A stretch of 32,000 bases of DNA from an uncultured bacterium (GCA_964640155.1 CAZXEQ010000007.1:1-32000); one strand, 5' to 3'. Positions 3,001 through 18,800 are shown, numbered from the stretch's first letter. The notes: generated from the sequence alone by a model not told the origin. Numbers and translations are program-made.

Positions 3001-6000
3001 GTCCCACTTGCTCCTGCAATGAGAGTATTGCTTGCCGGAGTAATGGATAAGTTTACAGATGGATTGGTGACTGTAAAATTACTACTACTGGTAGCAGTAC
3101 CACCTGCAGTGGTTACACGAACTAATCCAGTACTAGCTGCACTTGGAACTGTAGCTGTGATCTGAGTTGCAGAATTCACCGTGAATGTAGAATTTGTGTT
3201 ATTGAAAGAAACAACAGTAGCGCCCGTAAAATTAGTACCTGTTAAAACAACAGAGGTTCCAACAGGTCCACTTGTTGGAGTAAAAGAAGCAATTGTTGGA
3301 GCAGGGGGAGTCACTGTCATCCCAACAGTAATGGGATTAATGGTTAAACCAGAAGCCACACCACTAACCGTTAAAGTATTAGAACCAGTAGGAGTATTTG
3401 CATTCGTAGTAACAGTCAATGTAGCATTGTTCCCCGTGTTAGCTCCAGCGGGACTAAAAGAAGCAGAAGTATTTGCAGGAAGCCCTGTAGCAGATAAAGT
3501 TACCCCCCCTGTAAAGTTGTTACGAGACATATTAATCGTATAAGTAGTGCTAGAACCCACTACCACATTTTGAGAAGTAGGAGTTGATGATAGAACAACA
3601 GAAGGAGTTGCTCCACCATCTGGAGCGCCGTCATTGATAATGATTCTCATGATTTTTTCAAGAGTTTGTGTCGCTGTTAAATTTCTCTGATTGTATCCAT
3701 AGCGTAATCCCGCTGTTGTCCAAACAGCGCCATCTGCACCATTTAAAATATTAGGATGAACCCCATCTGTGCTTACACCTTGATTGATGATGTTAGGATC
3801 TAAAGAAGTTCTCCAATAATTGAGTAATGGGATTTGCTGAGTCTGAGCCATGTCGATAATGGCTTGATTATATGCTAAAACACGAGATCCCATCGTTGCA
3901 CTATCCAATCGAGGAGGAATAGTACTTAAGACAGGGATGACACCTTGATTGATAGTATCCGTAATAATTTTATTCATTTGAGTTCGGAATGCATTCACGT
4001 CATTGTAACGCTCTAAATCATTGGTTCCATACATAATGATTGCAATACTGGGCATAATAGTTTTAAGTTCACATTTTAAATAGGTATTGTAAGGAGCGGC
4101 ACAAGCAGAAGTGTTTGCATTAGCAGTGTCCGCGCTCCATCCCATGACAGCGCACATACCAGCTCTATTAAATGAATTAGACATACCACAACCACTTTGA
4201 GAACCCGGAACAGTCGTAGCCCTAAAATAGGTTAGAGTAGAAGCTAAACTTGTATTGGTTCCCAAATCTTCCCATCCGCAACCGACATCCCACAAGAAAG
4301 AACCAGACTCCGTAATGCTGTCACCGATTTTTGCAAACACACCTGGGCGATTACCCATTGCTTGACCTGCTTGAAGAATGGTTCTAAGTCTTGCCTTCAT
4401 AGCAGAGTCAATGTTTGGAATAATGGGCATGGTGCTAGGAGTAGAACCGCCTGATGTTGTTACACTGAAACTTGTGCTACTGGTAGCTGTACCACCTGCA
4501 GTTGTCACAGAAATAGTGCCTGTAGAAGCACCACTAGGTACTGTTGCTGTGATCTGAGTTGCAGAATTGACAGTGTAAGTAGCATTGGTTGTATTAAACC
4601 TAACAGCTGTAGCTCCTGTAAAATTAGCTCCTGTGATAATGACAGAAACACCGATAGCTCCGCTGGTGGGAGAGAAAGAAGAAATGGTGGGAGGAGTTGG
4701 AGGAGGTGTATTAACAGTGAAATTAGTACTACTGGTAGCAGTACCACCCGAAGTGGTCACACGTATTAATCCAGTGCTAGCTCCACTTGGAACCGTAGCT
4801 GTAATTTGAGTAGCAGAATTAATTGTGAAAGTAGAATTAGTATTGTTAAAAGAGACTGCAGAAGCTCCAGAGAAATTAGTACCCGTAATCACAACAGAAG
4901 TACCAACAGCCCCAGATGTAGGACTAAATGAAGAAATGGTTGGAGGAGCCGGGGGTAGAGGATTCACGGTCATCGCAACAGTAATAGGATTAATGGTTAA
5001 ACCAGTAGCAGTACCACTAACCGTCAGAGTGTTAGAACCCGTAGGAGTATTTGCATTCGTAGTAACAGTCAAAGTAGCGCTATTGCCTGTGTTAGCTCCT
5101 GTGGGACTAAAAGAAGCAGAAGCATTCGAGGGAAGACCTGTAGCAGATAAAGTAACCCCCCCTGTAAAGTTGTTACGAGACATATTAATCGTATAAGTAG
5201 TGCTAGAACCCACTACCACATTTTGAGAAGTAGGAGTTGATGATAGAACAACTGAAGGTGTCGTGCTTGTAGCTCCTATATAAGCCCCTGGAGGTCCAGA
5301 CGCAGTTCTTGTATTTCCAGCCCTATCTAATAGAACAGCATTACTTAAATTTCCGACAGGTGCCAATGGAGGTTGTGCTTGATCACCGCTTGCAAAATCA
5401 GGAATGGCATAAGTTGTAGCGCTAAAAATATTTCCTCCAGCAACAGGAGTATAATCACCTGCGGCAGGATTCACCAATTGAGGCGTTCCCATACTTGTTT
5501 TATTAATGGCATTATCTGTTATAAGTTGAGACTCACTGCAGTTTGCGTCATTACATCCACTTCCCCCGTTGATATCTAAAGTGGCAGGTCCATTCCAAAT
5601 CACATTTCCTCTGATTCTTACATTGTTATCCGCTCGAGAAGGAGAAGGAATATTCATTCCTGCCGGAGGCGTGACAGATCCCGAAATCACAAAATGGGAC
5701 CATTGGCTTTGATATCCAGAAGGATTGTAGAGCACATTATTGTAAATATAAATATTTCTATTAGGAATAGATTCTGTGTTGCCTCCTGCATTTCTAGGGC
5801 CCCAGCCCCCTAAGTTGCTATTGATAACACATCCATTGTTATCGTTGTTGTCACAACTTCTCATTCCATGAAAAACTCCAATACCATGGTCACGACTACC
5901 CACGCGATATAAAGTGTTATAAGCCATTAAAATGTTGTAACCCCCATTCACTCCCATTCCAGCTCCTGATGAATCATGAATAATATTATTTACAAATTTA

Positions 6001-6947
6001 ATGTCATAAGCTTCGTAATGAATCCATGGGGAAGTCATAAATTCAAAACCTGTGCTTTGTCCCGCAAGAAACGCTCCATCAGAGCCACCACCACCGCAAT
6101 TATAAAATTCATTTCCATCAACAAGAAGGTTCGCAGATCCGCCCTTTAAATAAGTGCACCAGCTGTCTCCATCATGCATTTTGCTTTTAATGATATGACC
6201 GTACTGAACTCCTACAAAATCAATAGGATTTTCATAGCAATGAGAAATTTCTGTATCTTCAATGTAGACATATTGACTTTGATTCACCTTCAATGCTTCT
6301 TGAGTGCCAGATTTAGAACCCTGAATTTTGCATTGACGTAGAAGCATATGATTACAAGCTTCAAAGTGAACAACATCACCGCCTGTGGTTTGAAATTTGA
6401 TTCCTATGAAATAAACATAATTACAATGAGCCATGTTGATGTTAGCAAAAACAGGAGTTCCATCTCCGTCCGCGGCCTGAAAAATAATTGGGCGAGTAAA
6501 AGTGCCATATCTTAAATCCCAATAATTAGGCAGAGTGTTGGCAGGATAATTTCCTGCCGTAAGCATCACACGATAACCTGTTGAAGATAATGTGACATTG
6601 GATGGAATTCTTTGCCATGCGGCTCCAACTGTTCTTAATGCTTGAGCTCTCGTATTTCCACTGGCGCTGTCGCTTCCATTGACAGGATCTACCCAAATAT
6701 CTTGAAGGGTAGGGGTTCCCATATCATATGGGGTTGCTGCTTGGGCAGGTTTCAAATTGATCAGAGACAGAGCAATAAATGAAATAGCAATACTCAAAGA
6801 ATGCAAACGATGAAAAGATCGATGAGGTGAATGTTGTGAAGCTTGAAGAGGGATGAGTTTTTCTTGATCGAAGGTTAACGAGAAACATTCTACAAAAACA
6901 AAACAGATACTTCTTATTGCCTTAACTACTAACTGTAAGAAGTTCAT
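1..6947 (-). CDS. Giant modular secreted/surface protein, C-terminus beyond the left window edge (>=2315 aa): signal peptide, right-handed parallel beta-helix, then alternating Ig-like beta-sandwich and IPT/TIG domains with two SGNH/GDSL hydrolase domains
   Basis: Hand translation of the reverse strand from the ATG (6947-6945) is stop-free down to position 1 (codon first bases at pos mod 3 = 2). The ATG is preceded by an AAAGGGGA Shine-Dalgarno (reverse complement of about 6953-6960). Motifs read directly: IWVDPVNGSDSASGNTRAQALRTVGAAWQRIP; FAKIGDS; MYGTND; DGVHPN; and repeated PTISSFSPTSGxVGTSVVITGTNF...ATQITATVPSGASTG.I.VTT.GGTATS. The + strand track ORFs at 172-5196 are V/T/G-rich antisense shadows of this frame. 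The ORF is absent from the track because it has no stop inside the window. Confidence 0.9.
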   Translation of the reverse strand, partial: MNFLQLVVKAIRSICFVFVECFSLTFDQEKLIPLQASQHSPHRSFHRLHSLSIAISFIALSLINLKPAQAATPYDMGTPTLQDIWVDPVNGSDSASGNTRAQALRTVGAAWQRIPSNVTLSSTGYRVMLTAGNYPANTLPNYWDLRYGTFTRPIIFQAADGDGTPVFANINMAHCNYVYFIGIKFQTTGGDVVHFEACNHMLLRQCKIQGSKSGTQEALKVNQSQYVYIEDTEISHCYENPIDFVGVQYGHIIKSKMHDGDSWCTYLKGGSANLLVDGNEFYNCGGGGSDGAFLAGQSTGFEFMTSPWIHYEAYDIKFVNNIIHDSSGAGMGVNGGYNILMAYNTLYRVGSRDHGIGVFHGMRSCDNNDNNGCVINSNLGGWGPRNAGGNTESIPNRNIYIYNNVLYNPSGYQSQWSHFVISGSVTPPAGMNIPSPSRADNNVRIRGNVIWNGPATLDINGGSGCNDANCSESQLITDNAINKTSMGTPQLVNPAAGDYTPVAGGNIFSATTYAIPDFASGDQAQPPLAPVGNLSNAVLLDRAGNTRTASGPPGAYIGATSTTPSVVLSSTPTSQNVVVGSSTTYTINMSRNNFTGGVTLSATGLPSNASASFSPTGANTGNSATLTVTTNANTPTGSNTLTVSGTATGLTINPITVAMTVNPLPPAPPTISSFSPTSGAVGTSVVITGTNFSGASAVSFNNTNSTFTINSATQITATVPSGASTGLIRVTTSGGTATSSTNFTVNTPPPTPPTISSFSPTSGAIGVSVIITGANFTGATAVRFNTTNATYTVNSATQITATVPSGASTGTISVTTAGGTATSSTSFSVTTSGGSTPSTMPIIPNIDSAMKARLRTILQAGQAMGNRPGVFAKIGDSITESGSFLWDVGCGWEDLGTNTSLASTLTYFRATTVPGSQSGCGMSNSFNRAGMCAVMGWSADTANANTSACAAPYNTYLKCELKTIMPSIAIIMYGTNDLERYNDVNAFRTQMNKIITDTINQGVIPVLSTIPPRLDSATMGSRVLAYNQAIIDMAQTQQIPLLNYWRTSLDPNIINQGVSTDGVHPNILNGADGAVWTTAGLRYGYNQRNLTATQTLEKIMRIIINDGAPDGGATPSVVLSSTPTSQNVVVGSSTTYTINMSRNNFTGGVTLSATGLPANTSASFSPAGANTGNNATLTVTTNANTPTGSNTLTVSGVASGLTINPITVGMTVTPPAPTIASFTPTSGPVGTSVVLTGTNFTGATVVSFNNTNSTFTVNSATQITATVPSAASTGLVRVTTAGGTATSSSNFTVTNPSVNLSITPASNTLIAGASGTYTLSINRTDFSGNVDLSISGLPSGATASFSPDPTTGNSSVLTINTTTNTVTGSSTLTISATASGITISPVTTTLIVNAPVPTISSFSPASGSVGTSVIITGANLMNTSSVKFNTTSATFIIDSTTQITTTVPSGASTGVISITTAGGAAISSSNFIVTLPSVGLSMTPSSNTIMAGESATYNIAINRTDFTGDVTLGVSGLPNEATASFNPTGTNSGNSATLTIDTTTNTPISSSTLTVSATASGITIAPVTASLIINHPVPTISSFSPASGTVGTSVVITGTNLSNASSVKFNDVGAVFIVDSSTQITAVVPSGATTGVISVSTLGGTATSSTPFTVTSPSVSLSITPASHSITTGESATYNIAINRTDFTGDVTLGVSGLPSGITTSFNPSGANSGASATLTLDTTASTSTGSRTLTISGTASGITIAPVTATLTINHPVPTISSFSPASGEAGTSVVITGTNLSDVTSVEFNTTSATFTIDSDSQITATVPANATTGPIHVTSAGGMATSSTNFLITTSGGNTPDNMPITPNIDSAMKARLKAIFLAGQSAGNRSGVFAKIGDSATASGAFLSDVGCSSETLDSDTNHLSTVINYFRTTSVTGGGSWCGIPNSFNRSTVSADEGWSTHGALGAISSASCPAPYNTALKCELYLTKPSIAVIMYGTYDLENYNDLTSFQNNLNQIIMDTINAGVIPVLSTIPPRLDNTTFGSRVAAYNQMIIDVAQAQQIPVMNFWKALQDPNMLNQGMDSDGLHLTSYPSSDASNLTPSGLRYGYNQRNLRVLEALEKVLNVVIHDGMPDGGTPTVSVSLSATPTSQTVLMGASTTYTININRTNFTDGVTLGVNGLPTGATATFSPADENTENSSTLTIDTTANTPGGSSTLTVTGSAEGITISPLTLNLTVTVPPPTITSFTPTSGGLAKSVTITGTNFTGATDVKFNTTSAIFTVDSATQITTTVPVGASTGKISVTTSGGTATSVSNFSVLASSVTLSVSPL
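600..1435 (-). other. SGNH/GDSL hydrolase domain, copy 2 (block III Asn replaced by Tyr)
   Basis: Block I is FAKIGDSATASG (about 1296-1330). Block III reads IAVIMYGTYDL (about 990-1020), so it is GTYD rather than GTND. Block V is DGLHLT (about 728-745). Confidence 0.65.
1440..3069 (-). repeat. Three tandem ~543-bp coding repeat units, each encoding an Ig-like beta-sandwich plus an IPT/TIG domain
   Basis: Segment 1851-1932 matches 2394-2475 with 2 mismatches (offset exactly 543 bp). The track shadow ORFs 1684-1917 and 2227-2460 are near-identical. A third, more diverged unit sits at about 2526-3069 (same motifs around 2935). Confidence 0.8.
3085..3606 (-). repeat. Dispersed direct repeat, copy A (IPT/TIG C-terminal part plus Ig-like domain), paired with 4730-5258
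   Basis: By eye it is about 88-90% identical to 4730-5258. It includes a perfectly identical 98-bp core, 3502-3599 = 5155-5252. Confidence 0.8.
3605..4440 (-). other. SGNH/GDSL hydrolase domain, copy 1 (all catalytic blocks intact)
   Basis: Block I is FAKIGDSITESG (about 4310-4340). Block III is IAIIMYGTNDL (about 4020-4050). Block V is DGVHPN (about 3760-3777). All were read from the reverse-strand translation. Confidence 0.7.
4460..4957 (-). other. Two consecutive IPT/TIG domains
   Basis: Copy one reads PPTISSFSPTSGAVGTSVVITGTNFSGASAVSFNNTNSTFTINSATQITATVPSGASTGLIRVTTSGGTATSSTNFTV. It is followed by PPTISSFSPTSGAIGVSVIITGANFTGATAVRFNTTNATYTVNSATQITATVPSGASTGTISVTTAGGTATSSTSFSV. This is the classic IPT/TIG pattern. 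Confidence 0.7.
4730..5258 (-). repeat. Dispersed direct repeat, copy B, paired with 3085-3606
   Basis: Same alignment as copy A, with an offset of 1653 bp between the identical cores. The track shadow ORFs 3181-3543 and 4825-5196 translate almost identically. Confidence 0.8.
5290..6735 (-). other. Right-handed parallel beta-helix (pectate-lyase-fold / DUF1565-like) domain of the giant minus-strand protein
   Basis: The N-terminal motif DIWVDPVNGSDSASGNTRAQALRTVGAAW is typical of beta-helix surface enzymes. It is followed by repeated short N/G/I/V-rich rungs (e.g. IKFVNNIIHDSSGAGMGVNGGYNILMAYNTLYRVG, NIYIYNNVLYNP, VRIRGNVIWNG). The assignment comes from motif memory, not from a search. Confidence 0.55.
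6740..6800 (-). other. Sec-type signal peptide-like segment (LSIAISFIALSLINLKPAQA|A), located about 50 codons downstream of the first ATG
   Basis: A hydrophobic core is followed by an AQA-A cleavage-like site in the hand translation, preceded by the basic HRSFHRLH. There is no in-frame ATG between 6947 and this segment; only TTG codons are available. Confidence 0.5.
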
Positions 6948-7033
6948 GTCTTTCCCCTTTCGGTTAAGTGCTCTATTCAATTTACTGGAAGAATAGACAC
7001 GTTCACACCGAACGGGAAAAGAGAGGTCTCTTG

Positions 7034-7062
7034 AGATTAAAGAGTATTCACCTCTTTGGCAA
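7034..7062 (-). promoter_or_regulatory. Weak candidate sigma70-type promoter for the minus-strand giant gene
   Basis: On the minus strand: TTGCCA (7062-7057), a 17-nt spacer, then TAATCT (7039-7034). This would give a leader of about 85 nt. The -10 is poor. Confidence 0.2.
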
Positions 7063-7109
7063 CCTGGCGGCCCTTCTCTTTTTAAAGAGTCTCGGGTCCA
7101 TGGCTTTGC

Positions 7110-7133
7110 CCATGAACTAGATACAGTTCATGG
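7110..7133. promoter_or_regulatory. Perfect 8-bp inverted repeat (CCATGAAC-N8-GTTCATGG) in the divergent intergenic region; possible operator or hairpin
   Basis: Read directly: 7110-7117 CCATGAAC, loop tagataca, 7126-7133 GTTCATGG. Confidence 0.3.
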
Positions 7134-7419
7134 CTCCGAAGCTACTCGGAGGTCCTATCCTTCCAGATAGTTTGCCTTTTTCAAAGTACATCATTCAAAG
7201 AACAAGTATTCAATTTCTGATTATCATTCTCGTCCTCTTTTTCCAGAACTGCAAGAAAAAAGTAACAAAGATGAGCGCTCTAAAAAAAGTTTTTCCAATT
7301 CTGTATGAGAAGAATATTTTATAGACAAGATTGAAAGAATGAAGTTATAAAAAAATCAAAATATCGTTTATGGGGTTGAAAAATTTCAAAAAATTCTTTT
7401 AAAAAAATGATCCCAAAAC

Positions 7420-7447
7420 TTGAATTTTTCTAATTTTGTGCTATATT
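7420..7447 (+). promoter_or_regulatory. Candidate sigma70-type promoter with extended -10 for the 7521-15263 ORF
   Basis: TTGAAT (7420-7425), a 16-nt spacer, then TG-n-TATATT (TG at 7439-7440, -10 at 7442-7447). Upstream, 7345-7418 is rich in roughly helically spaced A-tracts (UP-element-like). Confidence 0.45.
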
Positions 7448-7520
7448 AAATCCTAACCTTTTAACGAGCTATTTACAAATGGCTTCAAATGAATGAGTTG
7501 TGAAAAAGGGGGCGGTTGTT

Positions 7521-10500
7521 ATGGACCGATTCAAACGTTTTTTTTCTTGTCTGGTTGTATGTATTTTTTTTCTAAATGATGTTGTTTTAAACTTCGCCAA
7601 CGTGGCAATAGAAAAAACGACTCCCACTCATCGAAATGCTTCTCAAATTTCTTTAAATTCCCACTCAAGTTTACATATTCCTTCTAAGCTGGGTCAAATT
7701 ACAGAATCCTTTGAAGGAAAATCCAATCAAACCGTCATTCAAATTCAAGATGTGCATTGTCATTTTGAAGCCCAATCCAATGTTGCAAGAATTTTAGATG
7801 AAATTTTAAAAAAGCATGAAGGCCATGGTCTAGAAGTGATTAACGTTGAAGGATCCAGTGGCCTTCTGGATACCTCTCTTTTATCTTTATTCCCAGACAG
7901 CAAAATCAAAAAGTCCTTAGCTCTTTATTATTTGAAAAAGGGAAAAATCAATGGCGCGGAATTTCTCTCTATTACTAAAGATCGTCCTTTAAAGTTAAAC
8001 GGTGCGGAGAATTTAAATCTTTATTTTGAAAATTTGAAATGGTTTGATCGTTCTTTAAAATTAAGAAGAGATGCCCAGGAAACGCTTGAAAAGACAACTG
8101 AGATATTGGATCAACTAAAAGAAAAAGTTTATAACCTTGAGCTTAAAAAATATTTAACCCAGAAGAATGACTATGAAGAAAGTAAAACAGATATAGAAAC
8201 ATATTTAAATGGAGTGCAAAAACTTTCTGAAGAGAAGAACGTTAAAATCAATGATTTAGTGAATGTAGGTTTTTTTCTTAAATCTTCTAGAATGGGCCGT
8301 GAAATTCAGTTTGATAAAATTGAAGAAGAGCGAGCAAAAGTTATTGAAAAACTTTTACCAAAGCTTGATAAAAGTTCCCAGGCAGAATTTCTCACCAAAG
8401 GTTTGTATCTGAGATTGGAAAAGATTACACCTGAAGAATATTATCAGTATTTTGAGAGTTTGCTTAAGCTTGCAAATATTGAAATTAGCTCTACAGAGAA
8501 AAACTTCAATCAATATATACAATATCTCAAAGTGTTTGGTCAGATTCAAAAAGGCAAATTATTTGATGAAATGGATGAGTGGGAGAACAGGCTTAAAGAA
8601 AAATTAATGCAAAATGAAGAAGAACACAATTTAGAAAAAGCCAGCAAATATGTGAGTTTTCTTAAGAATTTTTATCATTTGGAGTTGACTAGAAAAGATC
8701 TCCAGTTTTATCAAGACAGCAAAAAGGATTTTGGTATTCATCAATTAAAAGAGATTCTTGAAAAACAAACAGTAAAATACAATATTCAGTTAGGTGAAGC
8801 ATCTCATGTTGAAAAGCTTGAAAAAGATTTGGCAGATCTAGAGGCTTTTTATAAAGCAGCTATCGCTCGTGATGCAGTGCTTGTAGAAAAGACTCTAGAG
8901 TCTTTTCAGTCGCCAGTTACAACACGCACAACGCAAGACGCACCCCGCACGACTGTCTTACTCGCTGGAGGATTTCATACTGAGGGCGTGGCGCAGAAAT
9001 TAAAAGAGAAGGGTGTTTCCTATGTTGTGATTACCCCTCGTGTGACAGAAATTCGAGCTAAAACACCTTATATTTCTGTCATGACGGATGAAAGAAGTGA
9101 ACTCGAGAATATTTTGGTGAAGGAAATATTTAAAAAACAGTCGTCGGTCGTCAGTCGACAGTCTTCAGTAAAGATAAATGAGACTGAAGGCAAATCTTCC
9201 TCACCAACTACAAATTTAAAATTCGCGACATCCAATGGTCAGTATAAACTGACAACCATCAAAAAACGAAAAACAGTCATTTCCGATACAGACTCTACCC
9301 AGCAAAATTCTAATACGGCTCTTGCAACGATGAGTTCTTCCCAAAATATAGATGCCCTAACAGCTGTTGCAGAAGTTGTAAGAGCAAGTGATCTAGATGT
9401 AGCTGCTGCTGTAGATAGAAAAGCAGAGGCGCTAAAATTGGCGATTGCAGAACAGGCTTTGGTGGCAAGGATCTCTGTTCTTTTGGCAGATCAAAGTTTC
9501 TATTTTTCAGCGAATGGTATGAGGCTTTGGGAAAATGCTGTTAGAGACTTTGCGATTCGTCAAAAAAACGTAAGAGAAATTTTATCTACAGCAAATTCGA
9601 TTCGTGTTACTGCCCAGAGACTTGGTGAAAAAATTTATTTGACTCTATCAGATTCAAATGGACAGGAAGTAGCGGGTTTCATTGTCGGTGAAAATTTTTC
9701 GAGAGAAGGACTTCTTGTTTTAGAGGGAAATTCTCTTTCGCTGCGAGATTTTCGAAAGGAGAGAAATTCTGCAAGACAGTTGGCAGAAAAAACTAAAAGT
9801 TCCTCCTCTAAGCCAACCCCATTAGGAGATGCTCCCTATAGAACTTTAGCTGGATCACGTATTGAAGCTCCTTCGAGTCCCCAATCGCGCCCAGTTTCAA
9901 GGGGAATTGGGGGAGCATATGGAAAACGTTTATGGGTTAGCGATGTGGGAGCTATGCTTATGGTTGTTGCGGCTGCTTGTGGGCCTGCTGTGGGAATGAC
10001 TACTTCACCCTCTGATGCGGATCAAGATGGCATGATTGTTCCAAAAGATGTAAAGACCACGGATGCTTCAGATGTGGATGCCTCTTTGACAGAGACTGGG
10101 GTAGATGCTGTGGAGTCTGAACCGACGATGGATGTTGGCGTTGTAGATGGGCCTGTTGCTACAGATGGTTTTTCAGGTGATACGTCTTCAATGGATGCTT
10201 TTACGGATACACGAGACGCTGGCGTGGATCGCATCGATGTAAGTTCTCTCGATGGTAGAATGGACGCAAGAATAGATGCAGTTGGCGCCGACAGTCGTTC
10301 AGATGTCGGATCAGATTCAAGAACTGATATTCCAATGGATGTTCGTATCAATCCAGCTCTTACGCTTATTGCAGTGACGGGACCCAGTGTGAGAGTTCTT
10401 CCTCACACGGTTGAGCCTGTGCCGGATAATATTTTTGAAACAGGAACTAATAGCAGTTTCTTTGGTCTTATCAGGTTAGATGGATCTATAGTTGAGACCC

Positions 10501-13500
10501 CTTCTTGTTATTTAGGTCAAATGGCAGTCGGAGGAGCTATTGCAGAAACATTACGCATATCACGAGATCTTGCAAGTGGGACTGTGGGGACGGTTACCTC
10601 GGTAGGTCAGATTAGTGATTCTTCTGATTCAAGAGTACTTGTAACTGTGTACCCAGCTCCTGATCGATCTTTGTACCATAGGTCAGATCCAGGCGGTGAA
10701 GTTAGATTGATTTTTCGTTATGAAAGTGGGTCCAACGTAGGATTTGACTTGGCTTTAGAGGATAGAAGCCGTGTTGTATATGTCGTGCGGGATGTCAGGC
10801 CGACTTCCAGTAGAGAAGGTTCAATGTACCGACTTCGTTTTACAGGGCTACCCTCGTCTGCTCGATTAACCCGAGTCCAATATCAAATGAGAGGTACGGC
10901 TGTTTCGGCTTCCACACTTCTTAGGCCCGTTAGTTTAAGTTGGTATGGTTTTATGACAGATTTGGGTATACCCGGGGTGTTAGCAAGATTGTACACACCC
11001 AGTGACAGGCAGCCTGCTACTTTGGTTAGCTCAAGTGCAAGGGTCGCAGTTCTTTCACCTGTTCCTGCAGGAATGCCTTTAGGAAATGTAACGCTTCGGT
11101 CAAAGCCAGTTTTAGTGTCATCAAATGCTTCGGGGCAGCAATCGGTTACAGAAAGAAGAAGTGCCAAAAGTGCAAAAACAGTTTTAGATGTTTTCAGGGC
11201 TAAAGGACTTGGGAATTTGTTACGTCTTCTTGTTGCTTGTATGTTTTTTGCTGTTATGGGTTGTTCAAGTCAGTCACCCGGTGGACCCATTCTTGACCAA
11301 GATGCGGATCAAGACGTGATAGAAATCCCAGACGGGGATGCGTCTGTACCTCGCACAGATGCCGCCGACGCTGCTATTGATGGCCAAACGCCTGTGGATG
11401 TATCGCCGCGAGATGTGAGCGTGGATGTTGTCCCTAGTTCTAGTACGGTTGCAATGGCAAACATGGGGGGTGATGCTCCAACTATTTTTCTTGGAGTTAG
11501 CTTATTAGACCCTGTGACATCGGGAACAGGGACATTTATTGGTCAATATGAAATTGATACCCAGCTTATGACGATGGAAGTGCATCTTGGAGCAAATGAC
11601 TATCCAGCGAACGATTCTGAATGGCTAGAAATGTACAAGCGTTGGAGAAGAAGAATCCTTATAGGGGGTCATTTGGGTCCTGATGGTTCTATTGAAGTTG
11701 AGATGCGCGTTGATAATCCGAGAGCAAGACAAGCAATTGCAGCTCATATTGCAGCAGGACGCAATTTCATATTTGGTTTGGACGCCCTCTGGAATTCTGC
11801 GGGCGGAACCGTAGAGGCTATCAATGGGGCCATGCTGGTTTTTACAGATGCAGCTGGAAGAGTGGTTAAGACAATTAATGCCACAGAAAGTGATGGACGA
11901 CGTCAAGATTTTGGAAAAATTGTTTTCCCAGCCTCTGAATTCAACGGAATAGACTTTAATAGTATGTCAAGTGTAAAATTTGTTTTGCGTCGTGACCATG
12001 TAGGTTCCAATGGAGATTTTTCGATTGCTTTAGACCCTGGTTTTTATGGAGTTCCTTATTATGCAACATCCAATCGTGAAGGCCGTATTTTACCTTTTAC
12101 GATTACAACGCTTGATAGAGATATTCCAGGAAGACCCGATTATTATCCTGTAGGAACGCCCACTTTTCGGGGAGGGGTACTCAATACGACTGTTCGTACA
12201 GATGATGCGGCGTTTAGAAGAGAGGGGCGCTTAACGGTTGTTGCTAGGGGACAATCCCTGGATACGCTACCTTTTACTCCAACAGTCGATTTTCCAGCTT
12301 TGTCTGGAACGTTTGATCTGGTGACTTCAGCCAACCCCAATGGACTTGTTCATATTGCTGTTATGGCTCCTCAGGCAAGAGAAGGTGTTAGATTAGCTTT
12401 TCAAAATCTAGCTTCTACAGTTTTCTCTTATGTTTATGTTACTCCAGAATATGGCGGGGGTGCAGGTGGTATGCCAACTGTAGGGACTAACACTGCTACG
12501 TATCGCTATTTTGCTTTTCCGGCGGACACATTAGTTCGTAGAGGATCGTCACCTACAGAAACGGGAGTGAATCCTGCTGCGGTTACAGGAATGAGAGTTG
12601 GGTTAAACCTTTTATCGACTATGGATCGCAATATAGTAATAGGATTTGATGGTCCTTTCCGAGTTGGTCCCACCGCTTTGGGAAGAGGTAAAACGCGTCA
12701 ACAGAGAGCGGCACGAAAAGTGGCTCAAGGACATGAAAGGGTAGAGGTGGAACCTACAGTTGTAGGTAAGGGAAAAATTGAAAATGGTTCTTATGCAGAA
12801 GAAAGTGGGATAGGGAATAAGCATGCAAATCGGATGCAGCGGGCTTTGGCTAGGGCCATCAAAGAGAATTCTACACTTGCTAATGTGAACATGCTCGTAG
12901 AGTTCTACTCAGATTTAGATACAGATGCTGAGGTTCATTCTAACCATGTGCGATTTCGTGCAGGGGCTTTTGATGATGATGGTCTGGCTACTCCCTGGCA
13001 AGAGGGGACTGTCGACTTTATGCTTGCATTTAAAATTCGCCATGAATTAACACCGCATGATACTAAGTGGGGTGAAATTCTTCCCATGATGGGCGATTTA
13101 AGATTTTTTTACAATGCTACGCTTAAAGAAAAAAGAGAGTTTATTGAACGAGCTGGGAAAGATCCCTATGCGCGATTTATTTTAGAAAATTACAATAAAT
13201 CTTTTGATGAACAGTTAACTGCGGTTATTGGGTTTATCTTGGTGGATGAAAGTCTTCCTAAAGAAGAAAGAATATATCCTCCAGATCAAATTGCTAAAGC
13301 GAAACAATTTAAAAAGCTTCGTACACAACATGCGCAAGTGACCGAACTTCAAGAAAAATTATCTGCTTACCAAGTACATGCAACAGCTGCTGGAGAAGTA
13401 CAGATGGTCACTGGCTTTTTGGAATTAGGAAAGCTTACGGAGTTCTCGACAGGCTCGAACAGTAATACAGGTTTTTCTTCGAGAGAGGCTGAAGGCCGAG

Positions 13501-15263
13501 TCGAGAAGTCCCTTGGACAAAGAATTGTAGGAGCACTTTCTAGAATTATTCCAGTTTTTGCTGAGCCTATTGGTGGCGATCAGCTTAAAAAGCTTTTAAA
13601 AGCTGCATTAAGACAACTCGCCAATGATGTTGTTTCAGATGATGAAGCTTTGTTGAAAGCAATTGATGAGGCTATTGATCTTATTGCAACAAGAGGAGTG
13701 ACATTGGATCAATTGAATGAAAAAGTAACTGCGATTGTTGCAGCACGTCTGGCACAAGAAGATCAAAGAAATTCAGATGTTGGGCGTGTTCGAAAGGCCG
13801 CACATTTTATGCATAATGGAATCTTGGCGTCTTTACTTCAAATGGCGGATTTTTTAAGAGGAGGGAGAGTATCTCCAGTTTCTGTCTATAGACTAGTTGA
13901 AGAATATCGAAAAAGTTCTGGCGCGCTTGACGGGCAAAAAGGTCAGGCAACTTTGGAAAATTTGATGGCAACTCTTCCAGAAATATCAAGAACAGATGGG
14001 GCCCAAGTGACATATTATGCGGATAAGCGATCGAGAGATTTTCTGGGTTACTTGATTCGAGATTTAAATGAGTATTTTGTCTTTTTGGCAAAAGTATCTG
14101 AGGATACTAGGAACGGGCTCGGAAAGCTTGAAGCAAATCTTGGCTATTACAGTGCGGCCTCGGATTCGAAGTTGAAAAACCTTCTTTTGCAAACGCAAGC
14201 GCGTGTGATTGAAATTACTGAGGAAGGTGCAATCAAAATTGGATCTGAAATAATAGCTATTGAAGGGGCGTCTGAAAAGTTAGCCTCTTTGAGGGAAAAA
14301 TCTGGAGTCAGATACATTGATCTGGTTTCACAAGGAGTTGTGAGTCCTCAGAGATTTGCAAGAATTTTAGATGAGTTGTTGGCCTGGCCTTCACCTGCCC
14401 ATGGGGATGAAAAAATTATCACAGGTTTTTCAGATGAACATGCTGTTGAAATGAGAAAAGAAGGGGATTCAATTCGTGTGCGAGTGATCCCAGAAATTAA
14501 TTTTGTCGAGCGTTATCAAACCCGAGTTGGTGCCTTACAAGCTCAGTATCGAGAACGCACAGAACCCCAATTTCAAGTGTGGGGAGGAGAGACGCTTAAG
14601 CTTAGAGTCGCGCGTGATGCAAGCGGCCAACCTATTCGTGAAGGCGGAAAAGTAAAAGTGGTTGCAGATGCCCAGAGTTTTGCTGAGTTTTACCGTGCTT
14701 TTGGTAGTCTTAAAAATAGGAGTGATATCTTTGCTATTAATGTGATTATTTCTTTTATATTAGAAGAAGGAATTAGTCCTAGTGAGGTTGACGAAGATGC
14801 TGTTCTTAAATCTATTTTAGATGATTTGGGATATGCTCAAGCCAAAACAAATAGAAATGTAAAAGTTTTGCTCCATTCTTATGGATCACAGAATCTTGCT
14901 CGGGAAGCTTTAGTGGCGATAGTAAATTCTTTTTACTTGGGAATGGAAGAGATTTTCAATTCCTCCAAACAGGTTTTTTTTATCTTAAGTGAAGCAGAAG
15001 CCAAAAATTATGGAGATTTGAAGGATCTTGTGTATACGATTCTTACAGGTTCATTAGATGCCAAGAGTGCGTATCTTTTGGCTGAGCAATTGGCATCAGG
15101 AGGGGTGTTAGAAGAAGGTTCAGAACTTTACAATCTTTTAAGAAAAGCAGATCCTGAAACCTTGGCAGCATTGAATGATCATAAAACTTCATCTCTAAAA
15201 GAATCATTTGAATCTCTAGAACTTGGCATGAGATCTCACAAAGCTGTAGAGAGCATGGCGTAG
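7521..15263 (+). CDS. Very large (~2580 aa) membrane-anchored protein of unknown function with mosaic composition
   Basis: This is the track ORF 7500-15263. I prefer the ATG at 7521 because GGGGG (7508-7512) lies 8 nt upstream, whereas the GTG at 7500 has no Shine-Dalgarno. The N-terminus MDRFKRFFSCLVVCIFFLNDVVLNFANVA is a basic-then-hydrophobic anchor. The stop is TAG at 15261-15263. I found no convincing whole-protein family match from memory. Confidence 0.85.
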   Translation: MDRFKRFFSCLVVCIFFLNDVVLNFANVAIEKTTPTHRNASQISLNSHSSLHIPSKLGQITESFEGKSNQTVIQIQDVHCHFEAQSNVARILDEILKKHEGHGLEVINVEGSSGLLDTSLLSLFPDSKIKKSLALYYLKKGKINGAEFLSITKDRPLKLNGAENLNLYFENLKWFDRSLKLRRDAQETLEKTTEILDQLKEKVYNLELKKYLTQKNDYEESKTDIETYLNGVQKLSEEKNVKINDLVNVGFFLKSSRMGREIQFDKIEEERAKVIEKLLPKLDKSSQAEFLTKGLYLRLEKITPEEYYQYFESLLKLANIEISSTEKNFNQYIQYLKVFGQIQKGKLFDEMDEWENRLKEKLMQNEEEHNLEKASKYVSFLKNFYHLELTRKDLQFYQDSKKDFGIHQLKEILEKQTVKYNIQLGEASHVEKLEKDLADLEAFYKAAIARDAVLVEKTLESFQSPVTTRTTQDAPRTTVLLAGGFHTEGVAQKLKEKGVSYVVITPRVTEIRAKTPYISVMTDERSELENILVKEIFKKQSSVVSRQSSVKINETEGKSSSPTTNLKFATSNGQYKLTTIKKRKTVISDTDSTQQNSNTALATMSSSQNIDALTAVAEVVRASDLDVAAAVDRKAEALKLAIAEQALVARISVLLADQSFYFSANGMRLWENAVRDFAIRQKNVREILSTANSIRVTAQRLGEKIYLTLSDSNGQEVAGFIVGENFSREGLLVLEGNSLSLRDFRKERNSARQLAEKTKSSSSKPTPLGDAPYRTLAGSRIEAPSSPQSRPVSRGIGGAYGKRLWVSDVGAMLMVVAAACGPAVGMTTSPSDADQDGMIVPKDVKTTDASDVDASLTETGVDAVESEPTMDVGVVDGPVATDGFSGDTSSMDAFTDTRDAGVDRIDVSSLDGRMDARIDAVGADSRSDVGSDSRTDIPMDVRINPALTLIAVTGPSVRVLPHTVEPVPDNIFETGTNSSFFGLIRLDGSIVETPSCYLGQMAVGGAIAETLRISRDLASGTVGTVTSVGQISDSSDSRVLVTVYPAPDRSLYHRSDPGGEVRLIFRYESGSNVGFDLALEDRSRVVYVVRDVRPTSSREGSMYRLRFTGLPSSARLTRVQYQMRGTAVSASTLLRPVSLSWYGFMTDLGIPGVLARLYTPSDRQPATLVSSSARVAVLSPVPAGMPLGNVTLRSKPVLVSSNASGQQSVTERRSAKSAKTVLDVFRAKGLGNLLRLLVACMFFAVMGCSSQSPGGPILDQDADQDVIEIPDGDASVPRTDAADAAIDGQTPVDVSPRDVSVDVVPSSSTVAMANMGGDAPTIFLGVSLLDPVTSGTGTFIGQYEIDTQLMTMEVHLGANDYPANDSEWLEMYKRWRRRILIGGHLGPDGSIEVEMRVDNPRARQAIAAHIAAGRNFIFGLDALWNSAGGTVEAINGAMLVFTDAAGRVVKTINATESDGRRQDFGKIVFPASEFNGIDFNSMSSVKFVLRRDHVGSNGDFSIALDPGFYGVPYYATSNREGRILPFTITTLDRDIPGRPDYYPVGTPTFRGGVLNTTVRTDDAAFRREGRLTVVARGQSLDTLPFTPTVDFPALSGTFDLVTSANPNGLVHIAVMAPQAREGVRLAFQNLASTVFSYVYVTPEYGGGAGGMPTVGTNTATYRYFAFPADTLVRRGSSPTETGVNPAAVTGMRVGLNLLSTMDRNIVIGFDGPFRVGPTALGRGKTRQQRAARKVAQGHERVEVEPTVVGKGKIENGSYAEESGIGNKHANRMQRALARAIKENSTLANVNMLVEFYSDLDTDAEVHSNHVRFRAGAFDDDGLATPWQEGTVDFMLAFKIRHELTPHDTKWGEILPMMGDLRFFYNATLKEKREFIERAGKDPYARFILENYNKSFDEQLTAVIGFILVDESLPKEERIYPPDQIAKAKQFKKLRTQHAQVTELQEKLSAYQVHATAAGEVQMVTGFLELGKLTEFSTGSNSNTGFSSREAEGRVEKSLGQRIVGALSRIIPVFAEPIGGDQLKKLLKAALRQLANDVVSDDEALLKAIDEAIDLIATRGVTLDQLNEKVTAIVAARLAQEDQRNSDVGRVRKAAHFMHNGILASLLQMADFLRGGRVSPVSVYRLVEEYRKSSGALDGQKGQATLENLMATLPEISRTDGAQVTYYADKRSRDFLGYLIRDLNEYFVFLAKVSEDTRNGLGKLEANLGYYSAASDSKLKNLLLQTQARVIEITEEGAIKIGSEIIAIEGASEKLASLREKSGVRYIDLVSQGVVSPQRFARILDELLAWPSPAHGDEKIITGFSDEHAVEMRKEGDSIRVRVIPEINFVERYQTRVGALQAQYRERTEPQFQVWGGETLKLRVARDASGQPIREGGKVKVVADAQSFAEFYRAFGSLKNRSDIFAINVIISFILEEGISPSEVDEDAVLKSILDDLGYAQAKTNRNVKVLLHSYGSQNLAREALVAIVNSFYLGMEEIFNSSKQVFFILSEAEAKNYGDLKDLVYTILTGSLDAKSAYLLAEQLASGGVLEEGSELYNLLRKADPETLAALNDHKTSSLKESFESLELGMRSHKAVESMA
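7740..8990 (+). other. Possible TIKI/TraB/ChaN/EreA-like fold split by a long Lys/Glu-rich helical insertion
   Basis: Motif 1 is VIQIQDVHCHFEAQ (7740-7775), followed by EVINVEGSSG. Motif 2 is TVLLAGGFHTEGV (8955-8987). This resembles the strand-H / E / GxxH signature of that superfamily. About 380 aa of K/E/L-rich, helix-like sequence lies between the motifs. This is a motif-level resemblance only. Confidence 0.3.
9921..9980 (+). other. Internal lipoprotein-signal-peptide-like segment 1 (GKRLWVSDVGAMLMVVAAA|C), followed by DADQD and an Asp-rich linker
   Basis: Codon-by-codon read: KR at 9924-9929, hydrophobic core at 9951-9977, Cys codon at 9978-9980, and DADQDG at about 10014-10031. Confidence 0.45.
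11196..11273 (+). other. Internal lipoprotein-signal-peptide-like segment 2 (RAKGLGNLLRLLVACMFFAVMG|CSSQS), followed by DQDADQD and an Asp-rich linker
   Basis: There is a basic n-region, the hydrophobic core LLVACMFFAVM, and the lipobox-like VMGC with its Cys codon at 11262-11264. An in-frame TTG at 11217 lies 9 nt after AAAGGA (11202-11207). Confidence 0.55.
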
Positions 15264-15272
15264 TTAAAGTTT

Positions 15273-15327
15273 GTCCCACAGGGACTGCAACCCCAAAGGG
15301 GCTATGCTAAAGCACTGCAAAAGCCCC
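15273..15327 (+). terminator. Cluster of short GC hairpins just after the stop codon; weak terminator candidate
   Basis: Three stems are present: GTCCC-aca-GGGAC (15273-15285), CCCC-aaa-GGGG (15291-15301), and GGGGC...GCCCC (15298-15302 with 15323-15327). There is no clean U-tract; only tgtaaaatctt follows. Confidence 0.25.
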
Positions 15328-15355
15328 TGTAAAATCTTGAGGCTTGTAACAACAT

Positions 15356-15411
15356 GGCAATCTCGTCTGAACTTAAAAGTTAGATTGCTTCGGGGCAGCG
15401 TTCCTCGCAAT
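15356..15411. repeat. Small palindromic intergenic element (GCAATCT...AGATTGC TTCGGGGCAGCGTTCCTC GCAAT)
   Basis: GCAATCT (about 15356-15362) is the reverse complement of AGATTGC (15382-15388). ATTGC (15384-15388) pairs with GCAAT (15407-15411). One frame reads DCFGAAFLAMT, which resembles the spurious peptides I recall from a widely dispersed bacterial palindromic repeat. Confidence 0.3.
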
Positions 15412-15525
15412 GACTACTTTTTGGACAGCCTCTTCTAATGACAAATCCTTGGTTTGTAGAGTTCGATCTTAAATAATGGCATTCTTTTGTTTAACAGAGG
15501 GAGAAAAATATCAAAAATCATTCCC

Positions 15526-15554
15526 TTGACCCTGCCTGTTCAAGATGGTACAAA
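15526..15554 (+). promoter_or_regulatory. Weak candidate promoter upstream of the giant YD-repeat gene
   Basis: TTGACC (15526-15531), a 17-nt spacer, then TACAAA (15549-15554). Confidence 0.2.
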
Positions 15555-15653
15555 TAAGCGGTTGGTGCTGTATTTTGAGAAGCATTGTAAGCTCTTTATT
15601 TAGAAGTTGTTGCATGATTTTATCCGATTACCCTATAAAGAAACCTAGCTTCC

Positions 15654-15682
15654 TTGACAGGAGGCATTTTTTATGGTATCTT
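15654..15682 (+). promoter_or_regulatory. Candidate sigma70-type promoter upstream of the giant YD-repeat gene (overlaps an SD-plus-mini-ORF reading)
   Basis: TTGACA (15654-15659), a 17-nt spacer, then TATCTT (15677-15682), about 115 nt upstream of the ATG at 15802. Confidence 0.3.
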
Positions 15683-15801
15683 TGAAGTGAGGTTGATGGT
15701 TGTAGAAGATACTCTATAGGCCAAGCAAGCATTAATCTCCTAAGTGAGAATTCCGAAAGTTTCTTCATTAAGCATTGGGGCTAATAACGGAGTCACAGAG
15801 A

Positions 15802-18800
15802 ATGTCCTTTTTTGCGTCTGTTAAAAAAAGTTACTGGGCGAAGGGGGTAAATGTTGCTCTTTCGCTCGTTTTTATTATGTGGGATATCGCTTCCACAGGC
15901 TTCACGGAAGCTGTCTATAATAGTCCCACCAAAAGTCCTATTGAAGAACCTGCAGTAACAGCCTCCCAAGCCAAAACTCGAGCTGCCCATGAAGAAGAAA
16001 TGCAACGTCAGATGTCTGTTCAGGAACAACTCCGTAACCGAAGTCGTGAAAGTGCTGTTACTCAAATTGGACGGCAGGGTCTTTTAGCAAATCTTCCTGG
16101 GAATAGACTTGATAAACAAGCCGAACTAGATCGTATGCTTCAAGCTCAGAAATATCAGAATGAGAATGAATATATTGGTCGTAAGAACGGTGCAGATGAA
16201 TTAGGAAAACATATTGCATCATTGGGTATTAATATTACGCTTGGAAAACGAAATCTCGCCAGTGCTGCCTTAAATGTTCCTACAGGTATTTCTGGTGTTA
16301 ATCGTCAAAATATTACGAATGGTGCGATTCGTTCTGTTCCAGGGATGAGACCCAATGGTATTTTTAATATGCAAATTACTTTTGCTGGAAAACTTTTTGC
16401 TAATTTAAATCAGGAACAAATGCGTGGAAATGTGTTAGTGGGTATTACACATATGACAGGTCCAATCACATTGGAAGGTATTTCTGGTGCTGCATATGAA
16501 AATGGAAAACAGGTAGATATATTCAAGGCTCCTGATCTTTCTAAAGTTTTTATTTCTCAATACACAAATACGTCGATTGATCCTAAAGGAAATAAGATTG
16601 TTACAGATATCAAACAAAAATATACAGATACTCCTACCGAAAAGCAGCTTTTAGATAAACCTATCGATATTCTTTCCACAACTGTAGATGAGAATAAAGG
16701 TGTTACCACCAAGACACATACTTTTGATATTGATTATTATACGTCTGATGATGAAGCCAATGGAAAATTCAAAGGTTATCGCAGTGCTTATGAAAGTGTC
16801 ACAGAGTTAAGTTATGCACCCTTGGCTCCTATTCATTCCTTTGTTTCTGAGGTCAAGTATACAAAGAAATCCGTGAAAAGTGATTTGGAGGCTTTGGGTG
16901 TTACTGATCAACCTCAATTAGATGGAGACGATGGTAAGGGAAATCGTATTTTGGTGGATGATCAGGTTCAGGTGGATTATCAAAAGTTTGGATGTACCTA
17001 TGAGAATGCAGAGAGTTGCGATAATACACCTGTGACCACTTTCAAACATACGAAGTTCAATGAATACAATGTTTTTGGTGAAGTGGTTCGTTATACAGAA
17101 GAAGGTTTTAGAATTTTGGGTGGTGAACGAGCTGGAGACGTCCCCAGCAATATGAATATTGCTAATTTTAGTTCTCAAAGAGGACATTACCCTCAAGCCA
17201 TCGATTATGAAATTGAATTTAAAAATGCTGGGTATAATGCATTGGGTCAATTGATTGTGTTTGATCAAATCACTTTGGATGGTGGCTCTCGACTCACTCA
17301 GCACAGCACACGAGAATATGATTTATTTAATCGTGTGGCAAAAGCTGTAGATCAATTTACGGATGGAGAAGGAACGCGTTGGGTTGAAACCACAGAATTT
17401 CTTTCCTATTTTGAACGAGGTAGTGTTTCTGCAGGATTAGTAAGAGAACAAAGAAAAACGACGCATTATTTAAACAGCGATCAGCCAGATGTGGTGGAGA
17501 CACAAACTTTTACTTATGATGAACGCTTTGGTTTGATTGCAACAGCTGTGGGAACACGCGTCTCAGATGGGATTACGGAAGAATTTGAAAGTACTTTTGA
17601 ATATGATGATTTTGCCAATGTGATTTTTCAAAGATCGATACAGCATTATACGGGTTCTTCAGATATCGCTCCGGATGGAATTGATTTTACACGAACCACG
17701 GAAACCACTTCTGATTATGATCGCTATCGTCGTGTGACACGTAAAGAAACCTCAACTATAGAAGGTCCTTATCAGGGCGTAGACAATATTGATGGTTCTG
17801 GGGCTGGAACGACGCGGGAATTTTTTAATACAACTACCGTTGTTCAAACAGATTTTTCTTATTGTCATGGATGCTTCTTAGCGGTAGCGTATTCTGAATT
17901 GGAAACTCATTCGGGTTTAAGTACCTCTTTTGTTGGACCTATTTTTGATTTGGATGGAAGATTAATAGGTTATGGTCCAATGCAGACCGTAAATGTTAAT
18001 TATACTATCTCACGCCGCTACACAGATATTCGCTATGCCACGATCAATGGTCAGCAGACGCAATGGCCAACTTATATGAATATTGAAATTAGTGACAGTC
18101 GCTATCCCAATGTGAATGAAACAAGAACGGTAGAAAACTTTTCATTTAACTCTAGAGGATTTGTGACTTCTTCTAGAACAACTACCCATCGTTGGGGGTC
18201 TTACACCATTACGGATGTTTCAGATCCTTTGTTTGGTCAGGTTATCACTTTAGATGTTACGACCGTTGAAATTTTAGAAAGCGCTTCTTATTTTCCCAAT
18301 GGAGCTATTCGTACGTTTAGAAAAAGACTGATCGATGGAACAGGTCTTGAAATTATAGTTGAGCGTTTAGATACTTCTTATATTCCATTGGTTAATGTTC
18401 CTTCAAGAACCGTAGAAAGAACGAACAAACGAGGATTGATTTTTGTAGAGACTTACGAAGCTGTTGAAGTAGGTAGGGATTTACAAGTACATGCTTATGA
18501 TCTAAGAAGAGAATTGGGAGATCCGATGTTTAGGACGGAATTGACTCAACGCCGTAACATTATTATTAATACGTTGCTTGTTCCTGTTATGTTCACAGAT
18601 ACAGTGACCGTAACATCGGCGGCAGGGACGATGATCGAAACTCGCATCGAAAGAACACGTGTGACCGGTTTTGAAGATGGAACGGGTAGACAAATTTCAA
18701 GTCACTTTATCAGCGTTTCTCGAAGAGCAAATGGAGATATGATTACGATTCAAGATAATCAAGAACAAAGAACCAATGCCTTTGGTCAGGCTCAGGAGAC

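Follow-up and report, generated by a model that had tools for sequence, protein, structure and literature searches.

Two embedded lipoprotein-type signals in a long exported protein of a probable Omnitrophota bacterium may record in-frame gene fusion

The long and giant proteins of Omnitrophota have been described as exported or membrane-bound, with numerous transmembrane (TM) helices and with sugar-metabolism and kinase domains (West-Roberts et al. 2023, bioRxiv 10.1101/2023.11.21.568195; 2026 preprint 10.64898/2026.06.07.730766). Size thresholds in both papers lie at 10–30 thousand amino acids (kaa), and in the 2026 preprint internal signal-peptide calls were deliberately suppressed as chunking artefacts (10.64898/2026.06.07.730766). 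Here, we analysed a 32,000-nucleotide stretch of DNA from an uncultured, probably Omnitrophota bacterium (GCA_964640155.1 CAZXEQ010000007.1:1-32000; hereafter the window) and focused on one plus-strand gene, at 7521–15263, which encodes a 2,580-aa exported modular protein and carries two lipoprotein-type signals deep within its open reading frame (ORF). A preliminary description of the window had read the GC-rich centre of this ORF as foreign lipoprotein modules captured in frame by an AT-rich host gene. Our analyses retain the in-frame lipoprotein cassettes, with circumstantial evidence for their fusion from a relic Shine-Dalgarno (SD) sequence plus ATG and from similar cassette heads, and discard the foreign high-GC origin. 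The interpretation that we hold to be somewhat better than an even bet is a single Sec-exported gene, in which the orphan block of the tail represents two native lipoprotein genes fused in frame.

Set beside the published proteins, the target is a variant within the known modular exported long proteins of Omnitrophota. Its homologues belong mostly to Omnitrophota, its product is modular and exported or membrane-associated, the gene is set in a giant-gene cluster (at least 2375, 2587, and at least 5409 aa), and members of its family carry PGM, PFK, PPDK-type, and kinase domains. In contrast to the published giants, the target measures 2.6 kaa and is devoid of a SecA-DEAD domain, of a C39 or S8 peptidase domain, and of any Pfam domain; it falls outside the 'Archaeovorin' and 'Dockerin-type' definitions (>30,000 aa; SecA-DEAD, TSP3, dockerin, peptidase C39/S8). 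Its embedded lipoprotein-type signals are not described in either paper. What distinguishes the gene are these clean embedded signals together with a possible one-base fusion scar, while its GC step is ordinary.

The second known system for comparison is the lipoprotein precursor, which is exported by Sec and processed by signal peptidase II (SPII; PROSITE PS51257). As in such precursors, both target segments combine a basic n-region, an apolar h-region of 11–13 residues, and a lipobox-type x-x-[AG]-Cys, and each signal leads into a long tether, probably disordered, and then into a globular part, which is the standard layout. Embedded signal 1 (GKRLWVSDVGAMLMVVAAAC) covers aa 808–827 of the ORF (9921–9980, plus strand) and ends in Cys827 (codon 9978–9980), and embedded signal 2 (RAKGLGNLLRLLVACMFFAVMGC) covers aa 1233–1255 (11196–11264, plus strand) and ends in Cys1255 (codon 11262–11264). 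Both are in frame with the ORF, as the preliminary description had proposed for 9921–9980 and 11196–11273; the in-frame translation of the latter interval is RAKGLGNLLRLLVACMFFAVMGCSSQ. In signal 1, the basic GKR is followed by the apolar VGAMLMVVAAA, and in signal 2 RAK..R is followed by LLVACMFFAVMG. Mean Kyte-Doolittle (KD) hydropathy over 19-mers reached 1.81 for signal 1 and 1.93 for signal 2, and over the 12 residues before the Cys it reached 1.96 and 2.59, respectively. Unlike those of lipoprotein precursors, however, the target signals lie 827 and 1255 residues inside the ORF and are not N-terminal, so that the cysteines are far from the expected 15–35 residues after a precursor N-terminus. 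Their lipoboxes read AAAC and VMGC, where the canonical form is L-[AS]-[GA]-C, and their lipidation is a prediction.

To separate these segments from generic hydrophobic stretches, two definitions were applied, namely the permissive core of PS51257, {DERK}(6)-[LIVMFWSTAG](2)-[LIVMFYSTAGCQ]-[AGS]-C, and a strict test combining a lipobox Cys, at least two K/R upstream, and an h-region KD of at least 1.8. Both signals matched the permissive core (GAMLMVVAAAC and VACMFFAVMGC) and both passed the strict test. The strict test gave no internal match in 65 homologues (193,402 aa), in another 79 members of the family from GTDB genomes (114,291 aa), or in the giant ORFs on either side of the target (~7,800 residues). 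When the target was shuffled, at least two core matches arose in only 6 of 2000 trials, and the presence of two embedded signals is far from a chance pattern. A canonical L-V-A-C is also present in signal 2 at aa 1244–1247, too early in the h-region. A derivation of segment 2 from the protein's own N-terminal signal was considered and rejected as weak (z = 2.5). At present, the signals may serve as membrane anchors, may provide an SPII cleavage site, or may do nothing.

Each Cys is followed by an Asp-rich linker, which opens with the motif DADQD at +12 and +13, respectively, and in both cases this motif is encoded by the identical 14-mer GATGCGGATCAAGA (at 10014 and 11301). Tether A (aa 828–949; 9981–10346, plus strand) contains 25 D in 122 aa, with DADQD at 10014–10028, and tether B (aa 1256–1327; 11265–11480, plus strand) contains 13 D in 72 aa, with DADQD at 11301–11315. 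Such tethers are unusual when compared with native lipoproteins: the first 60 aa include 10 and 12 Asp in the target, against 3.7 on average and no more than 8 in 19 candidate lipoproteins taken from 1.17 Mb of Omnitrophota DNA. The two heads, taken as the h-region plus the first ~60 residues of the tether, are alike (Smith-Waterman score 60 versus 30.8 ± 5.8 for shuffled sequences; z = 5.05; 2 of 2000), and this likeness resides in the Cys-x11/12-DADQD-xxIxP arrangement, outside the h-regions. In contrast, the bodies that follow are unrelated to each other (z = 0.26), and BLAST found no similarity between modules A and B. Module A body (aa 950–1215; 10347–11144, plus strand) is an orphan and module B body (aa 1328–1727; 11481–12680, plus strand) has no homologue; AlphaFold2 (AF2) confidence is low for both. 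Of the earlier statement that each DADQD-bearing linker leads into a beta-rich domain, the linkers stood, while the beta-rich domain was not confirmed, as it depends solely on a low-confidence model (predicted local distance difference test, pLDDT, 33); indeed, AF2 modelling of the block without an alignment was unusable, with a mean pLDDT of 32.9.

An exhaustive phmmer search with aa 800–1800 against 1.84 billion cluster representatives returned the query protein and, besides it, only a marginal Calx-beta-like repeat (P0068, E = 1e-4), which was judged non-homologous to the module. A back-translated scan of GTDB genomes for the block found nothing, and no block paralogues were present in the neighbouring giant ORFs. 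Judged from these searches, the block is a lineage-specific orphan middle of a hypervariable tail.

Could the two segments be ordinary internal TM helices of a multi-pass giant membrane protein, with a coincidental likeness to lipoprotein signals? Internal hydrophobic segments are indeed common in the family (208 KD peaks beyond residue 600), numerous TM helices are reported for Omnitrophota long proteins in the literature, and the simple-sum insertion free energies of the two segments (+3.3 and +1.9) fall inside the family distribution (median +1.4). In contrast, both target segments passed the strict test, which no internal segment in ~308,000 residues of the family passed, and a coincidence of this kind leaves the same DADQD-bearing, Asp-rich tether after both segments, and the similarity of the heads, to be explained. 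In addition, both apolar runs are short, at 13 and 15 residues, and the charges of both segments fit an N-in/C-out orientation, which is impossible for two consecutive helices. We therefore regard ordinary TM helices as unlikely, and the family-unique signals, the similar heads on unrelated bodies, and the relic start described below form a circumstantial case that would favour in-frame fusion over them.

The relic start is a candidate ribosome-binding site with start codon, GGGGGAG, CAT, and ATG (9919–9921), at 9909–9921 on the plus strand, which directly precedes the n-region of signal 1 and is +1 nt off the ORF frame. With one base added after ATG 9919, the product would be the canonical precursor MGKRLWVSDVGAMLMVVAAAC|G..., and a TAG 20 nt downstream would close the upstream ORF. 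Real starts in the window have a G-rich SD like that of the relic site, and 12 SD-plus-ATG sites of the relic kind occur in the 7.76-kb gene. As it stands, ATG 9919 starts a +1-frame ORF of 26 codons (9919–9999; MENVYGLAMWELCLWLLRLLVGLLWE*), which overlaps signal 1 and is also hydrophobic, and which is probably meaningless.

Under in-frame fusion, two once-independent native lipoprotein genes, with kindred leader and tether heads and unrelated bodies, would have been joined in frame to the upstream gene, at the first junction by a shift of one base immediately behind the former start codon and at the second by loss of a stop codon. A route for the resulting protein can be proposed with low confidence: the N-terminal signal would export the N-domain. 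Segment 1, which would meet the translocon from outside, might act as a stop-transfer anchor or simply be translocated, and segment 2, which is more hydrophobic and has the better lipobox and basic residues upstream, might restart export of module B and the C-terminal region. Cys1255 would then be on the outer face and accessible to Lgt and signal peptidase II. Three hydrophobic segments in the target and five in its closest homologue (P0002) would place the conserved N- and C-terminal modules on one and the same side.

The same start-like sequences bear on the alternative that the modules are separate proteins, either through a one-base assembly or strain-consensus error near 9921 or through internal initiation (at TTG 11217 or near 9919) that yields nested lipoproteins. 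An SD and ATG one base out of frame right at the n-region of segment 1 would fit this idea, as would the AAGGA, 9 nt, and in-frame TTG at segment 2; moreover, an SD-like motif precedes 9 of the 152 in-frame start codons, and two of these nine are at the two segments. The preliminary description had located TTG 11217 exactly, 9 nt after AAAGGA (11202–11207), and had suggested a nested lipoprotein starting there. This start is in frame and would put the Cys at position 16, but it gives a 15-residue signal with a single Arg, and a TTG with AAGGA is a weak start; for segment 1 there is no usable in-frame start at all, as the in-frame SD and ATG at 9960 leave eight residues before the Cys and no n-region. 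There is also no in-frame stop between the modules, and promoter-like signals are not above chance. Finally, the metagenome-assembled genome (MAG) and an independent Logan contig (run SRR8893623) are 100% identical over 10,896 bases, from 5223 to 16118 of the window, which covers the whole gene and both suspected junctions. Because of this identity a chimeric assembly, against which a check of read support had been suggested, is unlikely; the Logan contig was possibly built from the same reads, so that it rules out an assembler chimera and leaves a read-level artefact conceivable. Taken together, we consider separate proteins improbable.

Several observations weigh against in-frame fusion of lipoprotein genes. 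The canonical lipobox [LVI][ASTVI][GAS]C is absent from both signals, AAAC having A at -3 and VMGC having M at -2, so that both are of the permissive type, and the hydrophobicity of both segments is within the family range for internal hydrophobic segments. If segment 1 were a stop-transfer anchor, it would break the positive-inside rule, with KR outside and the Asp-rich tether inside. The relic SD and ATG were noticed post hoc, with a chance probability of roughly 2–4%, and the second junction is without a comparable scar, showing just the in-frame TTG with AAGGA. Relic SD-plus-Met sites before internal hydrophobic segments are not enriched family-wide (1/22 versus 8.9% in the control), and because of this the relic-start pattern appears to be specific to the target gene. 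A stand-alone relative of either cassette, as would be expected for the lipoprotein modules of the preliminary description, was not found among the 1.84 billion representatives or in GTDB representative genomes. There is likewise no orthologue by which to date the fusion or to gauge selection on the signals, as the best N-domain locus in GTDB genomes is just 37% identical.

A further possibility is that the protein acts as a polyprotein. The embedded signals would then re-insert, be lipidated at Cys827 and/or Cys1255, and be cut by SPII, so that one precursor would give rise to a membrane-bound N-terminal fragment and one or two lipid-anchored surface modules. In flavivirus and pestivirus polyproteins, internal signal-like segments part exported modules; these polyproteins are viral and are cut by eukaryotic signal peptidase I. 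For an internal lipobox or internal SPII-type processing in bacteria, no precedent was found in the literature. We regard this possibility as a long shot.

The GC contrast that had suggested a foreign origin is real. All six hand counts of the preliminary description were exact (30.0, 38.3, 23.3, 55.0, 60.0, and 46.7%), and no 3.1-kb segment of the window exceeds the block at 9800–12900 in GC, although the excess is modest (46.1% versus a window mean of 41.8%). The flanks of the block within the ORF have 35.7% and 40.1% GC and both neighbouring ORFs have 42.2%, and it is the AT-rich 5' region of the gene, with 35.7%, that truly stands out. The description of an AT-rich host does not hold; the K/E/N/I-rich helical N-domain alone is AT-rich. 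GC at third codon positions (GC3) is flat along the gene (0.19–0.38), and the step is confined to codon positions 1 and 2. When the expected GC was calculated from the amino-acid sequence and from synonymous usage in both neighbours and in the remainder of the gene, the block showed 0.461 observed versus 0.457 expected, with every 100-codon window within 0.028, and the GC step was gone, an outcome that the preliminary description had named as refuting its reading. The higher GC of the block is thus a passive result of its G/A/P/R/V/D-rich, Lys-poor composition compared with the K/E/N/I-rich N-domain.

These numbers bear directly on a donor with high GC, such as Myxococcota or Bdellovibrionota. 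In its favour, the block tops the window in GC, is rich in G, A, R, and P and poor in K, and has nothing similar elsewhere in the family; an ancient transfer with ameliorated synonymous sites is conceivable. In contrast, fourfold-site GC3 of the block (0.304) is indistinguishable from that of the remaining gene (0.308), and relative synonymous codon usage of the block correlates with that of the rest of the gene (r = 0.90) and of the neighbours (r = 0.82–0.88), so that synonymous-site GC and codon usage do not depart from those of the host, as they would in a horizontally acquired compositional island. No homologue from any phylum was found in the 1.84 billion representatives or in GTDB genomes. 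The block, with 1.7% K and 7.8% R, rich in G/A/P/V and with D over E, is in the native style of this genome's exported giants because the neighbouring giant ORFs share its K-poor, R-rich composition: their K/(K+R) values of 0.12 (right) and 0.37 (left) lie on either side of the 0.18 of the block, and K amounts to 1.0% in the right ORF (R 7.3%) and 1.3% in the left ORF. The K/E-rich helical N-domain is the exception. Acquisition from such a donor is hence very improbable in our view. Lys depletion looks like a general trait of the exported giant proteins of this genome. The right ORF has many 300-aa windows without Lys, including aa ~1501–2850, and Lys-free stretches of more than 1000 residues.

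The ~2580-aa ORF of the preliminary description is a single genuine gene, whose product is a modular envelope protein of ~2,580 aa that is exported by Sec. The ORF extends over 7500–15263 on the plus strand, with 2587 codons from GTG 7500 and a stop-to-stop frame that opens at 7497. ATG 7521 is the better start: AAGGGGG lies 8 nt upstream, a G-rich SD type common to both neighbouring genes, and the Logan gene call (P0067) also starts at 7521, giving the 2,580 aa. The NCBI call for an identical protein (P0001) starts 27 codons after ATG 7521 (codon 35 of the ORF), and the signal peptide is lost. Codon-position periodicity is strong and the frame is continuous, with GC of ~0.57, ~0.50, and ~0.30 at positions 1, 2, and 3. 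No competing or opposite-strand ORFs were indicated in the target gene, promoter and terminator matches within it were not above chance, and no Pfam or NCBIfam family was detected in the protein at E ≤ 0.1.

At its N-terminus, the protein carries a Sec-type signal peptide or anchor (MDRFKRFFSCLVVCIFFLNDVVLNFANVA; 7521–7607, plus strand; KD peak 2.13), whose n- and h-region have an equivalent in 122 of 130 family members. These members have a Sec signal peptide that typically ends in AWA or SFA; a lipobox as a family trait was rejected, as it is carried by just 7 of the 122 N-terminal anchors. The conserved N-domain (aa 54–571; 7659–9212, plus strand) is the AT-rich part of the gene, for which BLAST found 65 homologues covering aa ~10–570 only. 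Its motifs are QDxH (aa 83–86) and GGFHT (aa 490–494), and the invariant residues present in the target include Q83, D84, H86, E117, G118 ... G490, G491, F492, H493, and T494. An AF2 model of this domain (pLDDT 79) shows an alpha/beta core interrupted by a ~300-aa helical insert. No significant PDB match was obtained by PDB profile search or Foldseek, and there was no Pfam or NCBIfam match. A weak match to ChaN/Tiki/TraB (PF04187) near GGFHT was seen in one of 10 members, P0002, with E = 0.0048 for the full-length protein and E = 3.9e-4 for the N-terminal segment, both short of the Pfam cut-off. The conserved His and Glu motifs of the N-domain would be in keeping with this superfamily, and the ~300-aa helical insert would set the domain apart from it.

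The homologue set of 66 proteins, all of 1.5–4.5 kaa, has E-values from 3.7e-168 (P0002) down to about 1e-5, and the alignment is confined to aa ~10–570 in all except P0002. The named homologues are mostly from Omnitrophota, and a few are labelled Elusimicrobia, Endomicrobia, or Chlamydiae. The domains in the tails of the homologues are unrelated to one another and include protein kinases, UDP-glucose pyrophosphorylase, PGM, PFK, PEP-utilising, HD, metallophosphoesterase, TPR, and others. P0002 is 44% identical in the N-domain and also has the C-terminal ~600 residues in common with the target (aa 1980–2587; E = 3e-43; BLAST and phmmer), while its middle ~2,160 residues are not colinear with the target middle. 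Colinearity based on a resemblance of GLGNLLRLLVA and GLGRQLRALVVA was rejected (E = 34). In GTDB representative genomes, at least 555 N-domain loci were found, nearly all of them in Omnitrophota MAGs and often several per genome, the closest at the identity given above. Many N-domain carrier MAGs are labelled 'uncultured Planctomycetia', though the family is otherwise Omnitrophota. From these comparisons, the family is large and multi-copy, defined by a Sec signal, a conserved ~500-aa N-domain, and hypervariable tails.

Between the N-domain and signal 1 lies an unconserved linker (aa 572–807; 9213–9920, plus strand) without homologues, which ends in an S/P/R-rich, probably disordered part, and module B is followed by the C-terminal region (aa 1728–2587; 12681–15260, plus strand), which begins with a basic linker and includes the part in common with P0002. 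In two relatives, P0002 (aa ~1822–1862) and P0004 (aa ~693–724), there are internal, complete-looking type-I signal peptides with an initial Met and a final AxA, MNPLNLFIGLGRQLRALVVAFMISLSSSLVFLFTPSLAMA|QE and MRGASFQARAFAFATAMVLGLAATGAMA|QP. Embedded export signals may thus recur in the family in a non-lipoprotein form.

Read in the standard code, three giant ORFs take up the 32-kb window. An alternative genetic code had been suspected as only two ORFs of at least 150 aa were listed, and was refuted by these three ORFs, two of which run off the ends. The left neighbour (1–7127, minus strand; at least 2375 aa) combines seven IPT/TIG repeats with a beta-helix and a GDSL lipase domain, an arrangement that suggests a secreted surface enzyme. 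It diverges from the target gene at an AT-rich spacer (7128–7520; 26.7% GC at 7201–7500). The right neighbour (15772–32000 and beyond, plus strand; at least 5409 aa) has no Pfam match.

The giant proteins of Omnitrophota are a recognised puzzle with respect to their origin, their membrane crossing and placement, and their cleavage, and the target offers a small, tractable case. It also illustrates that an intragenic GC step can arise wholly from amino-acid composition, and it cautions against dismissing internal signal-peptide calls in giant proteins as artefacts. If the internal lipoboxes were used, this would be unprecedented SPII action at internal sites in bacteria, and if the polyprotein possibility held, giant Omnitrophota ORFs would supply several envelope proteins from one translation product. 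If in-frame fusion of the two lipoprotein genes is true, the gene would be concrete evidence that giant proteins lengthen as neighbouring genes for secreted proteins are joined on in frame.

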